Below are positions 27,038-33,940 of a DNA stretch of 64,000 bases, piece by piece. Made by a program: the position numbers and the translations under genes. The notes under the pieces were generated by a model, which was given only the letters and a program-made list of their open reading frames with translations, was not told where the DNA came from and did no database searches. The stretch covers positions 80,831 to 144,830 of the forward strand of contig JAVJRP010000014.1 in NCBI GenBank assembly GCA_040218355.1. Direction: 5' to 3'. Each line of letters begins with the position of its first letter. Within the stretch, counting starts at the first letter, position 1. Source of the DNA: Devosia sp. Its GTDB lineage: Bacteria > Pseudomonadota > Alphaproteobacteria > Rhizobiales > Devosiaceae.

Positions 27038-27900
27038 GCCTTTGCTCCCATGCGCGTATTGACCCATTTTTCAGCCGCGCCGACAATGGCGACCAGGATG
27101 GCCGCCAGGCCCGCCGCGATGAACAGGGCCGCCCAGATCTGCACGGTCTGGCCATTGTAGGAGCCGGTGAGCAGGCGCACGCCGAGGCCTCCGCCCGAAG
27201 CATTGGACAGTTCGGCCACCACTGCGCCGATCAGCGAAATGGCGATGCCCACTTTCATCGAGGCAAAGAGGAAGGGCATGGCGGCGGGCCAGCGCAGTTT
27301 CCAGAACACCTGCCAGCCATTGGCATCATAGGTGCGCATGAGATCAAGCTGGATGGCTTCGGGCGAGCGCAGCCCTTTCACCATGCCCACCACCACCGGG
27401 AAAAAGCTCAGATACATCGAGATCAGCGCCTTGGGCACCAGTCCGGTCAGCCCGACCGAACCCAGCCCCACCACCACCATGGGGGCGATGGCCAGAATGG
27501 GAATGGTCTGGCTGGCGATGATCCAGGGCATCAGCGAGCGGTCGGAGGCGTCATTGTGGATGATGGCCACCGCCAGCGCCACGCCCAGAACTGTGCCGAA
27601 GGCAAAGCCGAGCAGGGTCGCCGAGAGCGTGATCCAGGCGTGGTAGGCGAGCGAGCGGCGCGAGGTGATTTCGAGCGCCACCGTGGCGTTCCAGATTTCG
27701 GAAATCACCTGTTGCGGCGCGGGGAGCACCGGCTTGTCCTGTGCCCAGGTCTGGGCGGCAAACTCGGTAAAGGGCACATCGACCAGGTCCGCGCGCGCAT
27801 TGAGCCGCTCCTGCCAGGGCGCGTTCATCCAGATTGCAGCCGCATACCAGAGGACGATGATGGCGAGCAGAATGGTGAGGACGGGGAGGATGCGGTTCAT
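27034..27900 (-). CDS. ABC transporter permease (NitT/TauT type)
   Basis: SQTIPILAIAP, KLRWPAAMPFLF. Confidence 0.9.
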   Translation of the reverse strand: MNRILPVLTILLAIIVLWYAAAIWMNAPWQERLNARADLVDVPFTEFAAQTWAQDKPVLPAPQQVISEIWNATVALEITSRRSLAYHAWITLSATLLGFAFGTVLGVALAVAIIHNDASDRSLMPWIIASQTIPILAIAPMVVVGLGSVGLTGLVPKALISMYLSFFPVVVGMVKGLRSPEAIQLDLMRTYDANGWQVFWKLRWPAAMPFLFASMKVGIAISLIGAVVAELSNASGGGLGVRLLTGSYNGQTVQIWAALFIAAGLAAILVAIVGAAEKWVNTRMGAKA

Positions 27901-27922
27901 GTCGCCCGTCCCCGGCAGGATG

Positions 27923-28053
27923 CGCCCCCTCTCCCCTGAGGGGAGAGGGTTGGGGTGAGGGGTTCAGCGTTCGAGTGTGGCCCGGTGCGCATCTCCCGCG
28001 CTGAACCCCTCACCCGCCGCTGCGCGGCGACCTCTCCCCTCAGGGGAGAGGTG
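27923..28053. repeat. Composite palindromic repeat (empty element): two hairpin arms in inverted orientation
   Basis: CCCTCTCCCC-TGA-GGGGAGAGGG..GGGTGAGGGGTTCAG / CTGAACCCCTCACCC..CCTCTCCCC-TCA-GGGGAGAGG; arms match 32372-32416 (40/45) and 32285-32337 (50/53). Confidence 0.9.
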
Positions 28054-28084
28054 AAGGTGGCATCGTGTTCAAATGCCTCCATTT

Positions 28085-28873
28085 TCACACCGTCCCCTCG
28101 TCATAGGAATGCCCGGCCCGCAATCCTTCGCGGACCCGCGCGGCGATGGCGAGGAATTCGGGGGTTTCGCGGATATCGAGCGGGCGTTCGCGCGGCAGGG
28201 TGGATTCGATGATGTCGGTGACCCGCCCGGGGCGCGGCGACATGACCACGATGCGGGTGGACAAATAGACCGCCTCGGGGATGGAGTGGGTGACGAAACA
28301 GATGGTCTTTTCGGTGCGGGCCCAGAGCTTGAGCAATTCGGAATTGAGGTGATCGCGGACGATTTCGTCCAGCGCGCCGAAGGGTTCGTCCATCAGCAGG
28401 AGATCAGCGTCAAAGCTCAGCGCCCGGGCGATGGAGGCGCGCTGCTGCATGCCTCCGGAAAGCTGCCAGGGGTATTTTTTCTCGAAACCCGAAAGGTTCA
28501 CCAATTCCATGGTGCGCTTGATGCGCTCGGCCTGTTCCTGTGCCGAATGCCCCATGATTTCGAGCGGCAGGGCGATGTTCTTTTCGATGGTGCGCCAGGG
28601 ATAGAGCGCGGCCGCCTGGAACACATAGCCATAGGCCCGATTGCGCCGCGCTTCCTCCGGCGTCTGGCCATTGACAGTCAGCGTGCCCGAAGTGGGCTTT
28701 TCGAGATCGGCAATGGTGCGCAGGAAGGTGGTCTTGCCGCAGCCCGAAGGGCCAATGAAGGAAACGAAGTCGCCCTTCTCGATGGTGAGATTGACATCGG
28801 ACAGCGCAACGATATCGCCATCGCCGGTGGGGAAGGTGAGGCCGAGGTTCTGGGCGGAGACGACGGTGGTCAT
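28085..28873 (-). CDS. ABC transporter ATP-binding protein
   Basis: GPSGCGKT, LSGGMQQR, LLMDEPF. Confidence 0.95.
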   Translation of the reverse strand: MTTVVSAQNLGLTFPTGDGDIVALSDVNLTIEKGDFVSFIGPSGCGKTTFLRTIADLEKPTSGTLTVNGQTPEEARRNRAYGYVFQAAALYPWRTIEKNIALPLEIMGHSAQEQAERIKRTMELVNLSGFEKKYPWQLSGGMQQRASIARALSFDADLLLMDEPFGALDEIVRDHLNSELLKLWARTEKTICFVTHSIPEAVYLSTRIVVMSPRPGRVTDIIESTLPRERPLDIRETPEFLAIAARVREGLRAGHSYDEGTV

Positions 28874-28874
28874 A

Positions 28875-29048
28875 TTAGTCCTTCACGACAATCGTCACGC
28901 CCAACTCGCGCTCCACGATCTCTTTGACGGCCATGATGCCGCCAGCGCTTTTCTCGATAGCAGAGCGGAGCTTCTGATCGTGGCCCGGAAGGAAGTCCCC
29001 AGACCGAGTCTCTCCTCCGCAGCCGCATAGGCAAGGCTTCGCCGCCAT
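28875..29048 (-). CDS. 57-aa hypothetical protein with CxCxC...PGHD motif
   Basis: MAAKPCLCGCGGETRSGDFLPGHDQKLRS...; fills the hydA-ATPase gap almost exactly. Confidence 0.65.
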   Translation of the reverse strand: MAAKPCLCGCGGETRSGDFLPGHDQKLRSAIEKSAGGIMAVKEIVERELGVTIVVKD

Positions 29049-29050
29049 CC

Positions 29051-30502
29051 TCAAACCCCCGTCGCCGGAATGCCAGTGCGTTCCACCTTGCGGGGGGCGA
29101 CAATGTCCTTCCACTGGCTCAGGGCCCGGTTCACAGGGTTCTTTGCCTCGCGGGCGACGAACTTGCCGTGGCCCGGCTCGGCCTTGACCTCGCTTTCAAC
29201 GATGGAAACCTTGCCGCGGCTCAAAACGAAGCGCGGGAGGCCAGTGACCTCGAAGCCTTCAAAGACATTGTAGTCGATCACCGATTGCTGGTTGCCGGCC
29301 GAAATGGTCTTGCTTCGCTTGGGGTCCCAGACCACGAGATCGGCATCGGCGCCGACCATCACCGCACCCTTTTTGGGGTAGAGGTTGAGGATCTTGGCGA
29401 TATTGGTCGAGGTAACGGCAACGAATTCATTGGGCGTGAGGCGCCCGGTATTGACGCCCTTGGTCCAGAGGACCGGCAGGCGATCTTCGAGGCCGCCCGT
29501 GCCATTGGGGATTTTCGAGAAATTGCCGACGCCGAAACGCTTCTGATCTGTGGTGAAGGCGCAGTGGTCGGTGGCGACGCAGGAGAGCGAGCCCGCCTGC
29601 AGCCCGGCCCAGAGCGAATCCTGATGCTGCTTGTTGCGGAAGGGGGGCGACATGACCCGGCGGGCGGCATGGTCCCAATCGGGGTTGAAATATTCGCTCT
29701 CGTCCAGCGTCAAATGCTGGATCAGCGGCTCGCCATAGACCCGCATGCCCTTTTGCCGGGCGCGACGGATGGCCTCGTGAGCCTGTTCGCAGCTTGTGTG
29801 CACCACATAGAGCGGCACCCCGGCCATGTCGGCCAGCATGATGGCGCGATTGGTGGCTTCGCCTTCGACTTCGGGGGGCCGGGAATAGGCATGGCCTTCG
29901 GGGCCATTATTGCCCTCGGCGAGCAGTTTGGCGGTCATGGCGGCAACGACATCGCCGTTTTCGGCATGGACCAGCGGCAGCGCGCCGAGCGCAGCGCAAC
30001 GCTGGAAACTGGCGAACATCTCGTCGTCGTTGACCATCAACGCGCCCTTATAGGCCATGAAGTGCTTGAACGAGGTGATGCCGCGGTCGACCACCTCGGC
30101 CATTTCATTGAACACCTGCTCGCCCCACCAGGTGATGGCCATGTGGAAGGAATAATCCGTCGAGGCTTTGCCCGACTTGTTGTCCCACATTTTGAGGGCC
30201 TCAAGCAGGCTCTGGTCCGGGTTGGGCAGGCAGAAATCGACCACCATGGTGGTGCCGCCGGCCAGCGCCGCCCGCGTGCCGCTCTCGAAATCATCGGCCG
30301 AATAGGTGCCCATGAAGGGCATTTCGAGATGGGTATGCGGGTCGATGCCGCCGGGCATGATCAGGCAGCCGGTGGCGTCGAGGGTCTCGTCGCCTTTGAG
30401 GTTCTTGCCGATCTCGACAATGGTGTCGCCCTCGATCTTCACATCGGCCTCATAGCTGAGATCGGCTGTGACGATGGTGCCGTTCTTGATGACTGTGCTC
30501 AT
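29051..30502 (-). CDS. hydA: Dihydropyrimidinase
   Basis: PGGIDPHTH, SFKHFMAYKG, VHAENGD, ATDHCAF. Confidence 0.95.
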   Translation of the reverse strand: MSTVIKNGTIVTADLSYEADVKIEGDTIVEIGKNLKGDETLDATGCLIMPGGIDPHTHLEMPFMGTYSADDFESGTRAALAGGTTMVVDFCLPNPDQSLLEALKMWDNKSGKASTDYSFHMAITWWGEQVFNEMAEVVDRGITSFKHFMAYKGALMVNDDEMFASFQRCAALGALPLVHAENGDVVAAMTAKLLAEGNNGPEGHAYSRPPEVEGEATNRAIMLADMAGVPLYVVHTSCEQAHEAIRRARQKGMRVYGEPLIQHLTLDESEYFNPDWDHAARRVMSPPFRNKQHQDSLWAGLQAGSLSCVATDHCAFTTDQKRFGVGNFSKIPNGTGGLEDRLPVLWTKGVNTGRLTPNEFVAVTSTNIAKILNLYPKKGAVMVGADADLVVWDPKRSKTISAGNQQSVIDYNVFEGFEVTGLPRFVLSRGKVSIVESEVKAEPGHGKFVAREAKNPVNRALSQWKDIVAPRKVERTGIPATGV

Positions 30503-30582
30503 AATGCGTTCCCTTGTCTTTTGGTGTCACACCCTGCCTGCGCCTTCTCCTGAGCGCCGTGGCGAGTGTGAAATTCCTGAAA

Positions 30583-31833
30583 CTACTCCACGATCCCCGC
30601 TGTCTCGACCACGGCGTGGAACAGCACGTCGGCTCCTGCGGTCGCCCATTCCTTCGAAATGTCCTCGTCCTCGTTGTGGCTGAGGCCATCGACGCAGGGG
30701 CACATGACCATGGCGGTGGGGTAGAGCCGATTGATCCAGCAGGCGTCGTGCCCGGCGCCCGAGACGATGTTGCGGTGGCTGTAGCCGAGCCGGTCGGCGG
30801 CGTCGCGGACGGCCTTGACGCAGTTTTCGTCGAAGGTGACGGGGTCGAAATGGCCGGTCGGCTCGATGGACAGCCCGAGGCCCAGTTCCTCGGCGATTTT
30901 TGCCGCCTCGGCCTCGATCTGCTCGCGCATCGAGGTGAGCTTGTCCAGTTCTGGCGAGCGGATGTCTATGGTGAACACCGCCTTGCCCGGAATGACATTG
31001 CGCGAATTGGGATAGACATTGGCCTGCCCCACTGCGCCCACGGCATTGGGCTGATGCGCCATGGCGATACGGTGCACTGCCTCGGTCACGCGGGCCATGC
31101 CGAGGCCCGCATTGACGCGCATGTTCATCGGGGTCGAGCCGGTATGGGCGTCCTTGCCGGTCAGCGTCACTTCGAGCCACCACAGGCCCTGGCCGTGGGT
31201 GACGACGCCGATATCCTTGCCCTCGGCCTCAAGGATCGGACCCTGCTCGATGTGCAGCTCGAAAAAGGCGTGCATCTTGCGCGCGCCGACCTGTTCCTCG
31301 CCCTTCCAGCCGATGCGCTCGAGCTCATCGCCGAAACGCAGGCCTTCGGCATCCTTGCGGTCAAAGGCCCAGTCGAGTTCATGCATGCCGGCAAAGACGC
31401 CCGAGGCCAGCATGGCAGGCGCAAAACGGGTGCCCTCCTCATTGGTCCAGTTGGTGACGACAATGGGATGGCGGGTCTTGATACCCAGATCATTGAGCGA
31501 GCGGATGACTTCGAGGCCGCCCAGCACGCCGAGCACCCCATCATATTTGCCGCCGGTGGGCTGGGTATCGAGATGGCTGCCGACATAGACCGGCAGGGCA
31601 TCGGGATCGGTGCCTTCGCGGCGGGCGAACATGGTGCCCATCTGGTCGACGCCCAGGGTCAGCCCGGCCTCGTCGCACCAGCGGGCAAACAGCTCGCGCC
31701 CTTCCTTGTCGGCATCGGTCAGGGTCTGGCGGTTATTGCCGCCGGCCACGCCCGGGCCGATTTTTGCCATCTCCATCAGGCTGTCCCAGAGCCGGTCGCC
31801 ATTGATCCGAAGGTTTTCGCCGGGAGAGGTCAT
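30583..31833 (-). CDS. Zn-dependent N-carbamoyl-beta-alanine amidohydrolase (beta-ureidopropionase, M20)
   Basis: GSHLDTQPTGGKYDG, NEEG.RF, ELHIEQGP, SGAGHDA. Confidence 0.9.
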   Translation of the reverse strand: MTSPGENLRINGDRLWDSLMEMAKIGPGVAGGNNRQTLTDADKEGRELFARWCDEAGLTLGVDQMGTMFARREGTDPDALPVYVGSHLDTQPTGGKYDGVLGVLGGLEVIRSLNDLGIKTRHPIVVTNWTNEEGTRFAPAMLASGVFAGMHELDWAFDRKDAEGLRFGDELERIGWKGEEQVGARKMHAFFELHIEQGPILEAEGKDIGVVTHGQGLWWLEVTLTGKDAHTGSTPMNMRVNAGLGMARVTEAVHRIAMAHQPNAVGAVGQANVYPNSRNVIPGKAVFTIDIRSPELDKLTSMREQIEAEAAKIAEELGLGLSIEPTGHFDPVTFDENCVKAVRDAADRLGYSHRNIVSGAGHDACWINRLYPTAMVMCPCVDGLSHNEDEDISKEWATAGADVLFHAVVETAGIVE

Positions 31834-31838
31834 GATGC

Positions 31839-32438
31839 TTACTCGCTGATAGGGTCGGCGTTGAGCCGATAGCTGCGTTTCTTGGTGGAAGCGGCGCGTG
31901 CGCCGCTGACCCCTCGCCCCTGAGGGGAGAGGGTGGCCGGAGCGAAGCGGAGGTCGGGTGAGGGGTCCATTGCCAGCACACTGGCTATGGCGTCCCGAAC
32001 GGCTCCCGGATGGAGCAGAATGTCCCGGTTCCAGAAGCGAAGTACGGCGTAGCCTTGGGCATTGAGATAGGCCGTGCGCATTTCATCGCGCGCGCTTTCA
32101 GCATGCTGTCCGCCATCGGCTTCGACGATCAGGGCCGTCTCTCGGCAGACAAAGTCGGCGATGTAAGGACCAATACAGAGCTGGCGGACGAACTTGTGGC
32201 CATCCAGCTTACGGCCCCGCAGCAGGCTCCAAAGCTTTGCCTCGGCATCAGTGCTGTTGAGTCGCAGGGCGCGGGCCCGCGATACTGAACCCCTCACCCG
32301 ACGCTTCGCGTCGACCTCTCCCCTCAGGGGAGAGGTGGGGACCGGTGCTCCAGAGGAAGTGCCGGAGCCTTCGCCCCCCCTCCCCTGAGGGGAGAAGGGT
32401 GGAGTGAGAGGTTCAGACTGTCTGTGCCCTCTCACCAT
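31839..32438 (-). CDS. DUF559 (Vsr-like/YcjD) endonuclease-domain protein with repeat-encoded termini
   Basis: RARALR...TDAEAKLW..LR.RKL.G.KF.RQ..IGPYIADF.C....LIVEADGGQH...RD..RTAYL...GY.VLRFWN; true start may be GTG 32297. Confidence 0.85.
   Translation of the reverse strand: MVRGHRQSEPLTPPFSPQGRGGEGSGTSSGAPVPTSPLRGEVDAKRRVRGSVSRARALRLNSTDAEAKLWSLLRGRKLDGHKFVRQLCIGPYIADFVCRETALIVEADGGQHAESARDEMRTAYLNAQGYAVLRFWNRDILLHPGAVRDAIASVLAMDPSPDLRFAPATLSPQGRGVSGARAASTKKRSYRLNADPISE
31911..31966. repeat. Left hairpin arm flanking the DUF559 core
   Basis: CCCTCGCCCC-TGA-GGGGAGAGGG..GCGAAGC..GTCGGGTGAGGGGT; inverted relative to 32289-32335. Confidence 0.85.
32285..32436. repeat. Right hairpin arm (32285-32337) plus an extra left arm (32372-32416) and a truncated partner (32428-32436)
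   Basis: Direct sequence comparison with 27923-28053. Confidence 0.85.
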
Positions 32439-32443
32439 GTTGC

Positions 32444-33940
<1,497 letters not shown>

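Follow-up and report, generated by a model that had tools for sequence, protein, structure and literature searches.

Among the closest described counterparts of the locus reported here are a repeat and a pairing of a gene with a repeat. The repeat, called BoxC, PIT or the TM motif, has been in print since 1992 (Bergler 1992, Bachellier and Hoyne/Maher, cited in PMC4666352) and is known from over 260 genomes in addition to that of E. coli (PMC4666352, Holder et al. 2015), with the published consensus CCCTCNCCC-N3-6-GGGNGAGGG-N3-GGGNGAGGG. The same paper tied the motif to genomic instability and named no enzyme, with 0 occurrences of either 'endonuclease' or 'Vsr' in its text (PMC4666352). The pairing is that of the GIY-YIG nuclease SsnA, whose gene is flanked by hairpin repeats that SsnA itself cuts, with sequence-specific cutting of single-stranded DNA (ssDNA) beside the repeat (PMC11893778). 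Here we describe a DUF559 nuclease gene of a Devosia sp. (Alphaproteobacteria) that lies between two inverted arms which, by their sequence, are BoxC/PIT/TM intrastrand-triplex motifs. The stretch of DNA analysed, referred to as the window, has 64,000 nucleotides (assembly GCA_040218355.1, contig JAVJRP010000014.1, positions 80,831 to 144,830 of the forward strand). A literature search on DUF559, ycjD, BoxC and intrastrand triplex returned no paper linking the gene family to the repeat; in print, inverted repeats around DUF559 appear only in a single table row, given without comment in a list of predicted inversion targets (PMC9881135).

We found that gene and motif belong together as a single evolutionary unit, and the comparisons below make DUF559 a strong candidate for the partner enzyme of the BoxC/PIT repeat. 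The first-pass annotation, made from the window alone, had placed the DUF559 core between inverted arms, which was borne out with small corrections of the coordinates (Table 1). It had likened the arms to repeats of the RIME/CIR class, an assignment that gave way to the BoxC/PIT/TM motif (PMC4666352). The general build of an arm is a hairpin (CCCTCNCCCC-TNA-GGGGAGAGGG), a connector and a G-rich box (GGGTGAGGGG). In the left arm, the hairpin CCCTCGCCCC-TGA-GGGGAGAGGG (31911-31933) is followed by a connector of 22 nt (31934-31955), which has GCGAAGC at 31942-31948, and by the G-box GGGTGAGGGG (31956-31965). The right arm begins with TGAA and the C-box CCCCTCACCC (32290-32299), followed by a connector hairpin CGACGC-TTC-GCGTCG (32299-32313, ~13 nt, with a GAA loop on the minus strand) and the hairpin ACCTCTCCCC-TCA-GGGGAGAGGT (32314-32336). 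Of these two hairpins, the left is an exact match to the 9-nt consensus and the right an A-for-C variant. A repeat search paired the arms in inverted orientation over 21 nt at 95% and over 17 nt at 94%.

A further arm and a truncated partner had also been claimed. The former is real, though degenerate; the latter (~32425-32436) turned out to be only a weak C-box-like run. The third arm and the right arm together make a palindrome with the boxes facing outwards (box-out; 32285-32416). Folded as ssDNA with ViennaRNA, whose model does not include triplexes, the right arm forms two adjacent hairpins (z = -4.4) and the third arm a weak fold (z = -1.2).

Throughout this genome we counted 152 triplex-motif hairpins, which fall into four stem subfamilies; the hairpin CCCTCNCCC-N3-6-GGGNGAGGG had 15 exact matches compared to 0 for the reversed control. 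All three DUF559 genes (this locus is copy 1) lie inside inverted hairpin pairs. The inverted pairs with boxes facing inwards (box-in) have either 68-108 bp between hairpins (~18 gene-less elements) or 381-416 bp, and the longer class is precisely the three DUF559 loci. Alignment of one flank with the inverted other flank gave scores of 23.5 (this locus), 38 and 24 for the three DUF559 cores, while none of 3012 other gene-like open reading frames (ORFs) of the same genome reached 17.5 (maximum 16). A chance origin of the bracket was ruled out by this control. The arms of copies 2 and 3 belong to a stem subfamily (CCCTCCCC) different from that of copy 1; the arms of each paralogue come from one subfamily, which also has dispersed copies of its own.

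The same bracket was found far outside Devosia. For the alphaproteobacterial survey, one genome per family was taken (150 families); 46 genomes had DUF559 and 28 loci were examined, of which 24, from different families, outscored every shifted control. For the set of named loci (80 from species-representative genomes, 70 scorable, arms counted at a score of at least 17.5), arms were present at 53 of the 70, from at least six phyla. The phyla with a bracket include Pseudomonadota, Myxococcota, Binatota, Nitrospirota and Chloroflexota; examples are Mesorhizobium, Sphingomonas, Xanthomonas, Neisseria oralis and Coxiellaceae (39% GC), as well as Kofleriaceae, Binataceae, Nitrospirae, SAR202 and Dehalococcoidia. 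DUF559 homologues as a rule have arms, and a usual lack of arms, which the first-pass annotation had named as a refuting outcome, was not seen. We also observed at least one triplex-motif hairpin no more than 170 nt away at 56 of 57 DUF559 loci. The commonest layout was box-in on both sides, and box-out on both sides occurred at 3 of the 57. Among the other classes of Pseudomonadota, some GC-rich and even 42%-GC loci had arms, and several low-GC loci had none. The coding strand of DUF559 loci was assigned by similarity of the core, as a stop-free criterion is unreliable in GC-rich DNA, where both strands are open.

The gene and the hairpin also occurred together at the level of whole genomes. 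Among the same 150 genomes (39 DUF559-positive and 111 DUF559-negative in this test), at least two hairpins were present in 29/39 of the former compared to 10/111 of the latter (odds ratio (OR) 29, p = 2e-14). With two arms per gene subtracted, the counts of genomes with at least three hairpins were 22/39 and 9/111 (OR 15, p = 2e-9), and for genomes of at least 3 Mb this corrected test gave 18/28 compared to 3/32 (OR 17, p = 9e-6). Dropping G072, a DUF559-negative and hairpin-positive genome flagged as unpublished, turned 10/111 into 9/110 and 9/111 into 8/110 and left the rest unchanged.

In E. coli K-12, which has 23 BoxC copies and one ycjD, the published motif no. 9 lies 168 bp downstream of ycjD, and there is a degenerate hairpin at the ycjD 3' end. 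The fabI-ycjD spacer holds a partial duplicate of the ycjD 3' end between motif no. 9 and ycjD, then the degenerate hairpin; this order of parts suggests a rearranged or decayed cassette.

The box ACCCCTCACCC corresponds to the third strand of the triplex motif and not to an arbitrary terminal inverted repeat. When the G-box was compared with the asymmetric purine arm throughout this genome, 60 cases matched in mirror orientation only and 3 in direct orientation only. A mirror is what a purine-motif triplex requires. Where connectors are long, they form a mini-hairpin, whose triloop on the G strand was GNA in 105 cases and TNC in 1. GCGAAGC is the commonest form, and as DNA this heptamer, d(GCGAAGC), makes a mini-hairpin of unusual stability. 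The mirror box and the strand bias of the GNA loops support a fold at the DNA level on a defined strand. For triplex formation by the isolated strand, the loop bias is indirect support.

The arms have changed less than the gene between them. The ratio of nonsynonymous to synonymous substitution rates (dN/dS) of the core was 0.14-0.22 with respect to orthologues within each of the two cassette types described below, with dS >1; by this measure the DUF559 protein is under purifying selection. The left arm is identical to that of G008 at 58 of 59 nt and to that of G015 at 55 of 59, and the right arms of this genome (G000), G008 and G015 are identical at 46-49 of 51 nt, the differences between the right arms of G000 and G008 being a compensatory pair plus a loop base. 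Overall, arm identity was 90-98% while synonymous sites of the core were saturated. A stretch of 42 nt (GGGGAGAGGGTGGCCGGAGCGAAGCGGAGGTCGGGTGAGGGG) of the left arm is found unchanged in both arms of the Mesorhizobium ciceri DUF559 locus, where the core has 58% protein identity to that of P0001, the frame studied here. Non-coding arms held more tightly than the adjacent coding sequence argue for sequence-specific recognition.

Comparison of congeners showed how the cassette comes and goes. The junction between mmsA and the M20 gene was 12-24 bp long and free of arms in seven congeners, about 70 bp long with a terminator-like hairpin in three, and taken up by 161 bp of other hairpins in the three closest relatives, where the flanks were 90-97% identical. 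Empty sites in relatives, which the first-pass annotation had suggested looking for at the mmsA-amidohydrolase junction, are represented by the seven short spacers. In G010 the junction has an unrelated, AT-richer insert of 313 bp. A DUF559 cassette was found at this junction in six Devosia genomes and in two types. Type A (G000, G008, G015) is box-in; type B (G021, G004, G013) is box-out and has the hairpin plus ACGCAGGAGCC repeated in direct orientation. All six filled junctions form a single end-to-end open frame of 178-200 codons, and all six have arms, so that a syntenic gene without arms, an outcome named beforehand as damaging to the idea, was not seen there. The third arm of our locus can be aligned to the motif found at the right end of type B cassettes.

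The three nearest relatives were without copy 1 and copy 3. Copy 2 was present in G011 and G005 and missing in G009, where a solo arm remains; the copy 3 site in G009 had no motif. The region of the gene-less miniature in the window, 191 bp long (27898-28088), is reduced to 9 bp in G005 and G011. That copy 1, copy 3 and the miniature each have empty alleles free of any motif favours movement as a unit. In G005 and G011 the two genes next to the missing miniature overlap directly (TAATG). A TAG codon interrupts the frame of copy 2 (C5:696924-697244), yet the inverted repeat around the gene, 38 nt long, is perfect; the copy 2 protein is near-identical in G011 and G005.

The next junction of the operon, from the M20 stop to the amidohydrolase start (30503-30582), is a gap of 80 bp in this genome, and six congeners (G008, G001, G021, G003, G019 and G022) have a DUF559 cassette there. 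The second cassette of G008 (L009:590-1060) has arms of type A, and its stop codon shares bases with the ATG of the following gene. At both junctions, 12 of 12 cassettes from 11 Devosia genomes were oriented with the operon. When 24 DUF559 cores, each named by its insertion site, were placed in a maximum-likelihood (ML) tree, the only monophyletic site groups were type B and the copy 2 orthologues; with 11 of 21 inner branches unresolved, the tree was too poorly resolved to serve as a test of vertical descent against repeated insertion, and we set it aside.

The miniature in the window has the same two arms as the gene-bearing cassette, its left arm with the canonical 3-nt connector TTG; miniatures elsewhere consist of an inverted pair with a loop of 25-40 nt only. 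With its short flanks, the miniature makes a 63-codon open frame (27897-28088, minus strand), whose GTG overlaps the upstream gene stop (GTGA) and whose TGA overlaps the downstream ATG (ATGA). In its peptide, the ends that the arms encode in the DUF559 frame recur (TSPLRGEVAAQRRVRGS ... EPLTPTLSPQGRGG). In G008 the miniature has at least 40 copies with a semi-conserved loop of 40 nt, many of them with extra conserved flanks ending TATGGAGTG ... CACTCCATA; the amplified unit may thus be about 230 bp long with outer inverted ends of its own. The CCCTCCCC subfamily also forms about 12 box-out doublets with 29-34 bp between hairpins. A comparison of miniature loops with the two ends of the DUF559 core, for traces of the latter, gave a weak signal: 5.5 compared to 2.7 for one G008 cassette, with copies that are not independent, and no likeness for the other cassettes.

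Table 1. Features discussed in the text (positions are those of the window unless a sequence label precedes them)
Feature	Position	Strand	Remarks
199-codon open frame (P0001)	31839-32438	-	spans the entire intergenic gap between the aldehyde dehydrogenase and M20 genes
DUF559 (PF04480) Vsr-fold nuclease core, residues 53-155	31974-32282	-	Pfam E 1e-35
Left arm, 3' of gene	31910-31969	+	hairpin, connector, G-box, then TCCA
Right arm, 5' of gene	32286-32336	-	triplex motif read on minus strand
Third, degenerate triplex-motif arm	32374-32416	+	hairpin ~32376-32399, degenerate G-box 32400-32411, then TTCAG
Gene-less miniature with the same two arms	27926-28053		41 nt between boxes
Box-out CCCTCCCC doublets, examples	C5:341990-342064, C5:567939-568017, C17:84119-84196		this genome
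Aldehyde dehydrogenase, mmsA-like, upstream neighbour	32444-33940	-	Pfam Aldedh E 1e-138
M20 peptidase / amidohydrolase, downstream neighbour	30583-31833	-	Pfam Peptidase_M20 E 4e-30

The earlier statements that the unit interrupts a catabolic operon and has no transposase both stood. The ATG of P0001 (32436-32438) is 5 nt past the aldehyde dehydrogenase stop and its TAA (31839-31841) is 5 nt ahead of the ATG of the M20 gene, all three genes being co-oriented on the minus strand. Pfam matches in the 199-codon frame were DUF559 and MTES_1575 only, with no HUH Y1 or other transposase domain. The Rfam scan of 27500-33000 gave no RNA or intron family, only sub-threshold look-alikes of microRNAs and sRNAs, and no methyltransferase gene was identified adjoining the DUF559 gene. 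A frame of 92 codons (32010-32288, plus strand) is also open, antisense to the DUF559 core.

P0001 belongs to DUF559 with a Pfam score of 122 bits (cut-off 20.6), and the solved structure closest by sequence to its core is PDB 3HRL (E 6e-26). An AlphaFold model built on 68 homologues had a predicted local distance difference test (pLDDT) score of 86-97 for residues ~49-165, compared to 47-59 for the arm-encoded ends (residues 1-48 and 170-199). With this model, Foldseek gave template-modelling (TM) scores of 0.90 for 3HRL, 0.76 for I-Bth0305I and 0.56 for Vsr. Residues D95, E106, D108, H112, R121 and others are invariant across the 68 homologues and all present in P0001, and the same set was found in 53 DUF559 cores from many families; we regard these residues as putatively catalytic.

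Taken together, we read the locus as a 'nuclease plus triplex-repeat' element, selfish or semi-domesticated, in the form that carries the gene; to this reading we give appreciable, though less than even, credence. The nuclease would recognise the arm folded on ssDNA, always on the G-rich strand, and would nick at or near the folded arm. Host repair and recombination of the breaks would keep the arms uniform, and cassettes and miniatures would occasionally be copied into new sites, a mode of action like that of RAYT with REPINs or of SsnA with SRM hairpins. A nuclease that recognises the folded arm and cuts, with host repair doing the rest, would be the most economical mechanism, and RAYT/REPIN and Ssn/SRM are its two nearest precedents. 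The anatomy, the gene-repeat linkage and co-occurrence, the turnover, the selection on the protein, the conservation of the arms and the strand-specific fold signatures are observed, and binding, cleavage and any role in spread are inferred. Since the whole element can be translated through and is invariably oriented with the operon, it would be tolerated at tight junctions without polar damage.

A number of observations weigh against this reading. A small PD-(D/E)xK nuclease is unable to do strand transfer alone. Neither a target-site duplication nor exact element ends were found between filled and empty junctions, type B cassettes are box-out, and gene copies are few relative to miniatures. 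Clear arms were lacking at 17 of the 70 named loci, and the low-GC gammaproteobacterial loci L053-L057 had no arms. Conversely, no DUF559 was detected at E<=1 in G083, G171, G058 and G084, whose perfect hairpins number 20, 49, 9 and 7, those of G171 being miniatures and solo copies only; such motif-bearing genomes without the gene favour independence of the repeat. Fewer than two canonical hairpins were present in 10 of the 39 DUF559-positive genomes, and GC content and genome size may confound the co-occurrence test. The sole DUF559 protein studied experimentally, Caulobacter VsrA, was tied to cytosine methylation and the SOS response, not to repeats (PMC12907096).

The last point keeps alive a repair-type rival. 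In this view something else, be it host recombination, replication slippage or another transposase, moves or maintains the repeats. DUF559 would then have its role in other processes, perhaps nicking T:G mismatches like Vsr in connection with a cytosine methyltransferase, and its gene would be a favoured cargo or neighbour. This is unlikely in our judgement. In its favour, VsrA causes methylation-dependent DNA damage (PMC12907096), the repeats persist in genomes without DUF559, arm orientation varies, and the apparent outer inverted ends of the G008 miniatures (TATGGAGTG...CACTCCATA) might belong to another mobiliser. It does not sit well with gene-sized box-in pairs of this genome that hold DUF559 only, with a pairing seen again in at least 6 phyla, or with the finding that the arms of each paralogue come from a single stem subfamily, which is also dispersed on its own. 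One may also suppose that the inverted pairs are pre-existing host repeats and that a free-standing DUF559 gene invades them, its product cutting the empty loop so that the gene is copied in via arm homology. Filled and empty elements do have an identical arm type, the fold resembles that of the homing endonuclease I-Bth0305I, several genomes have repeats and no gene while DUF559 loci are seldom without a nearby hairpin, and a solo arm is kept at the copy 2 site in G009. The empty alleles of copy 1 (seven congeners) and copy 3 (G009) are armless, however, so that arms and gene arrive or leave together; only about 1 in 12 same-family miniatures is filled, and miniature loops are poorly conserved in this genome. 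We hold such homing to be decidedly unlikely.

Strong hairpins in a cassette that sits inside an operon, co-oriented in 12/12 cassettes at two junctions, could also terminate transcription, stabilise mRNA or block translation, keeping a potentially toxic nuclease gene in check or tuning expression of the operon, with the gene-less copies as REP-like regulatory repeats. We find this improbable: PIT elements acted neither as promoters nor as terminators in E. coli (as cited in PMC4666352), the mirror orientation of the G-box and the strand bias of the GNA loops indicate a fold of DNA and not of RNA, and specificity for one gene family across phyla would be left unexplained. A programmed switch, in which the inverted arms flip the gene relative to an outside promoter, could be argued from the enrichment of 'DUF559 domain-containing protein' (OR 14) among predicted inversion targets (PMC9881135). 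With the 12/12 cassettes from 11 Devosia genomes in the direction of the operon and open end to end, and with no recombinase gene adjacent, we rejected the switch on its uniform orientation and regard it as having hardly any chance of being correct.

The gene-repeat link, if specific, would provide a testable function for both partners and bring a third nuclease superfamily to the theme of a nuclease framed by its own repeats, after HUH/RAYT and GIY-YIG/Ssn; a structure-specific ssDNA nuclease tool might also come of it. BoxC/PIT/TM is found in hundreds of genomes, is linked to instability and has no known origin or partner enzyme, and DUF559 is a very large family. A bolder generalisation, which we think doubtful and more likely wrong than right by a good way, is that DUF559 proteins are structure-specific nucleases reading the purine-motif intrastrand triplex on ssDNA, with BoxC/PIT/TM as their REPIN-like partners, and that the two jointly make up a pan-bacterial class of mobile cassettes with no classical transposase, built for read-through translation and so able to live at operon junctions and inside genes. 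If so, DUF559 proteins would be the first enzymes known to read an intrastrand DNA triplex.

Among known systems, pairs of autonomous transposons and miniature inverted-repeat transposable elements (MITEs) resemble the present case in having long and short forms with common ends and in insertion polymorphism; here, however, there is no encoded transposase of a known class and no target-site duplication was found. Rickettsia palindromic elements likewise stay open to translation. I-Bth0305I (PMC3239194) and E. coli Vsr have the catalytic fold in common with P0001, at the Foldseek TM scores given above, but there is no intron or intein here (no Rfam match), and the framing repeats are without counterpart there.

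With respect to BoxC/PIT/TM itself, the arms fit the CCCTCNCCC-loop-GGGNGAGGG hairpin plus a mirror third strand, and E. coli too has inverted box-in pairs, at five sites. The differences are that the motif here brackets a nuclease gene and that the gene-flanking connectors have ~13-22 nt instead of the published 3 nt, one of them being a GAA-triloop hairpin and the other holding the GCGAAGC mini-hairpin.

A REPtron-like system had been proposed for this locus at the outset. The proposal is supported in part: the nuclease-plus-palindrome unit is real and general, with gene-less miniatures and dispersed doublets, the spread of the repeat by DUF559 is a conjecture, and the HUH Y1 transposase of REPtrons is absent. 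As in REPtrons (RAYT, REPIN; PMC3116915, PMC3333891), the gene is flanked by inverted copies of a palindrome that is dispersed through the same genome, gene-less doublets occur in intergenic DNA, and each gene copy has one repeat subfamily. Unlike RAYT, an HUH Y1 transposase, the enzyme here is of the unrelated PD-(D/E)xK superfamily; in addition, the DUF559 gene is multi-copy and gained or lost between close species, and the repeat is a triplex motif and not a simple REP hairpin. The Ssn system with its NTS/SRM repeats (Chenal et al. 2025, PMC11893778) is similar in having a small nuclease gene with a dispersed hairpin repeat on both sides in many phyla. Ssn has the GIY-YIG fold and DUF559 a Vsr-like one, the repeats differ, and cutting was shown for Ssn while DUF559 is known here from sequence; two-sided flanking was seen at ~76-86% of DUF559 loci compared to the 42% reported for Ssn.

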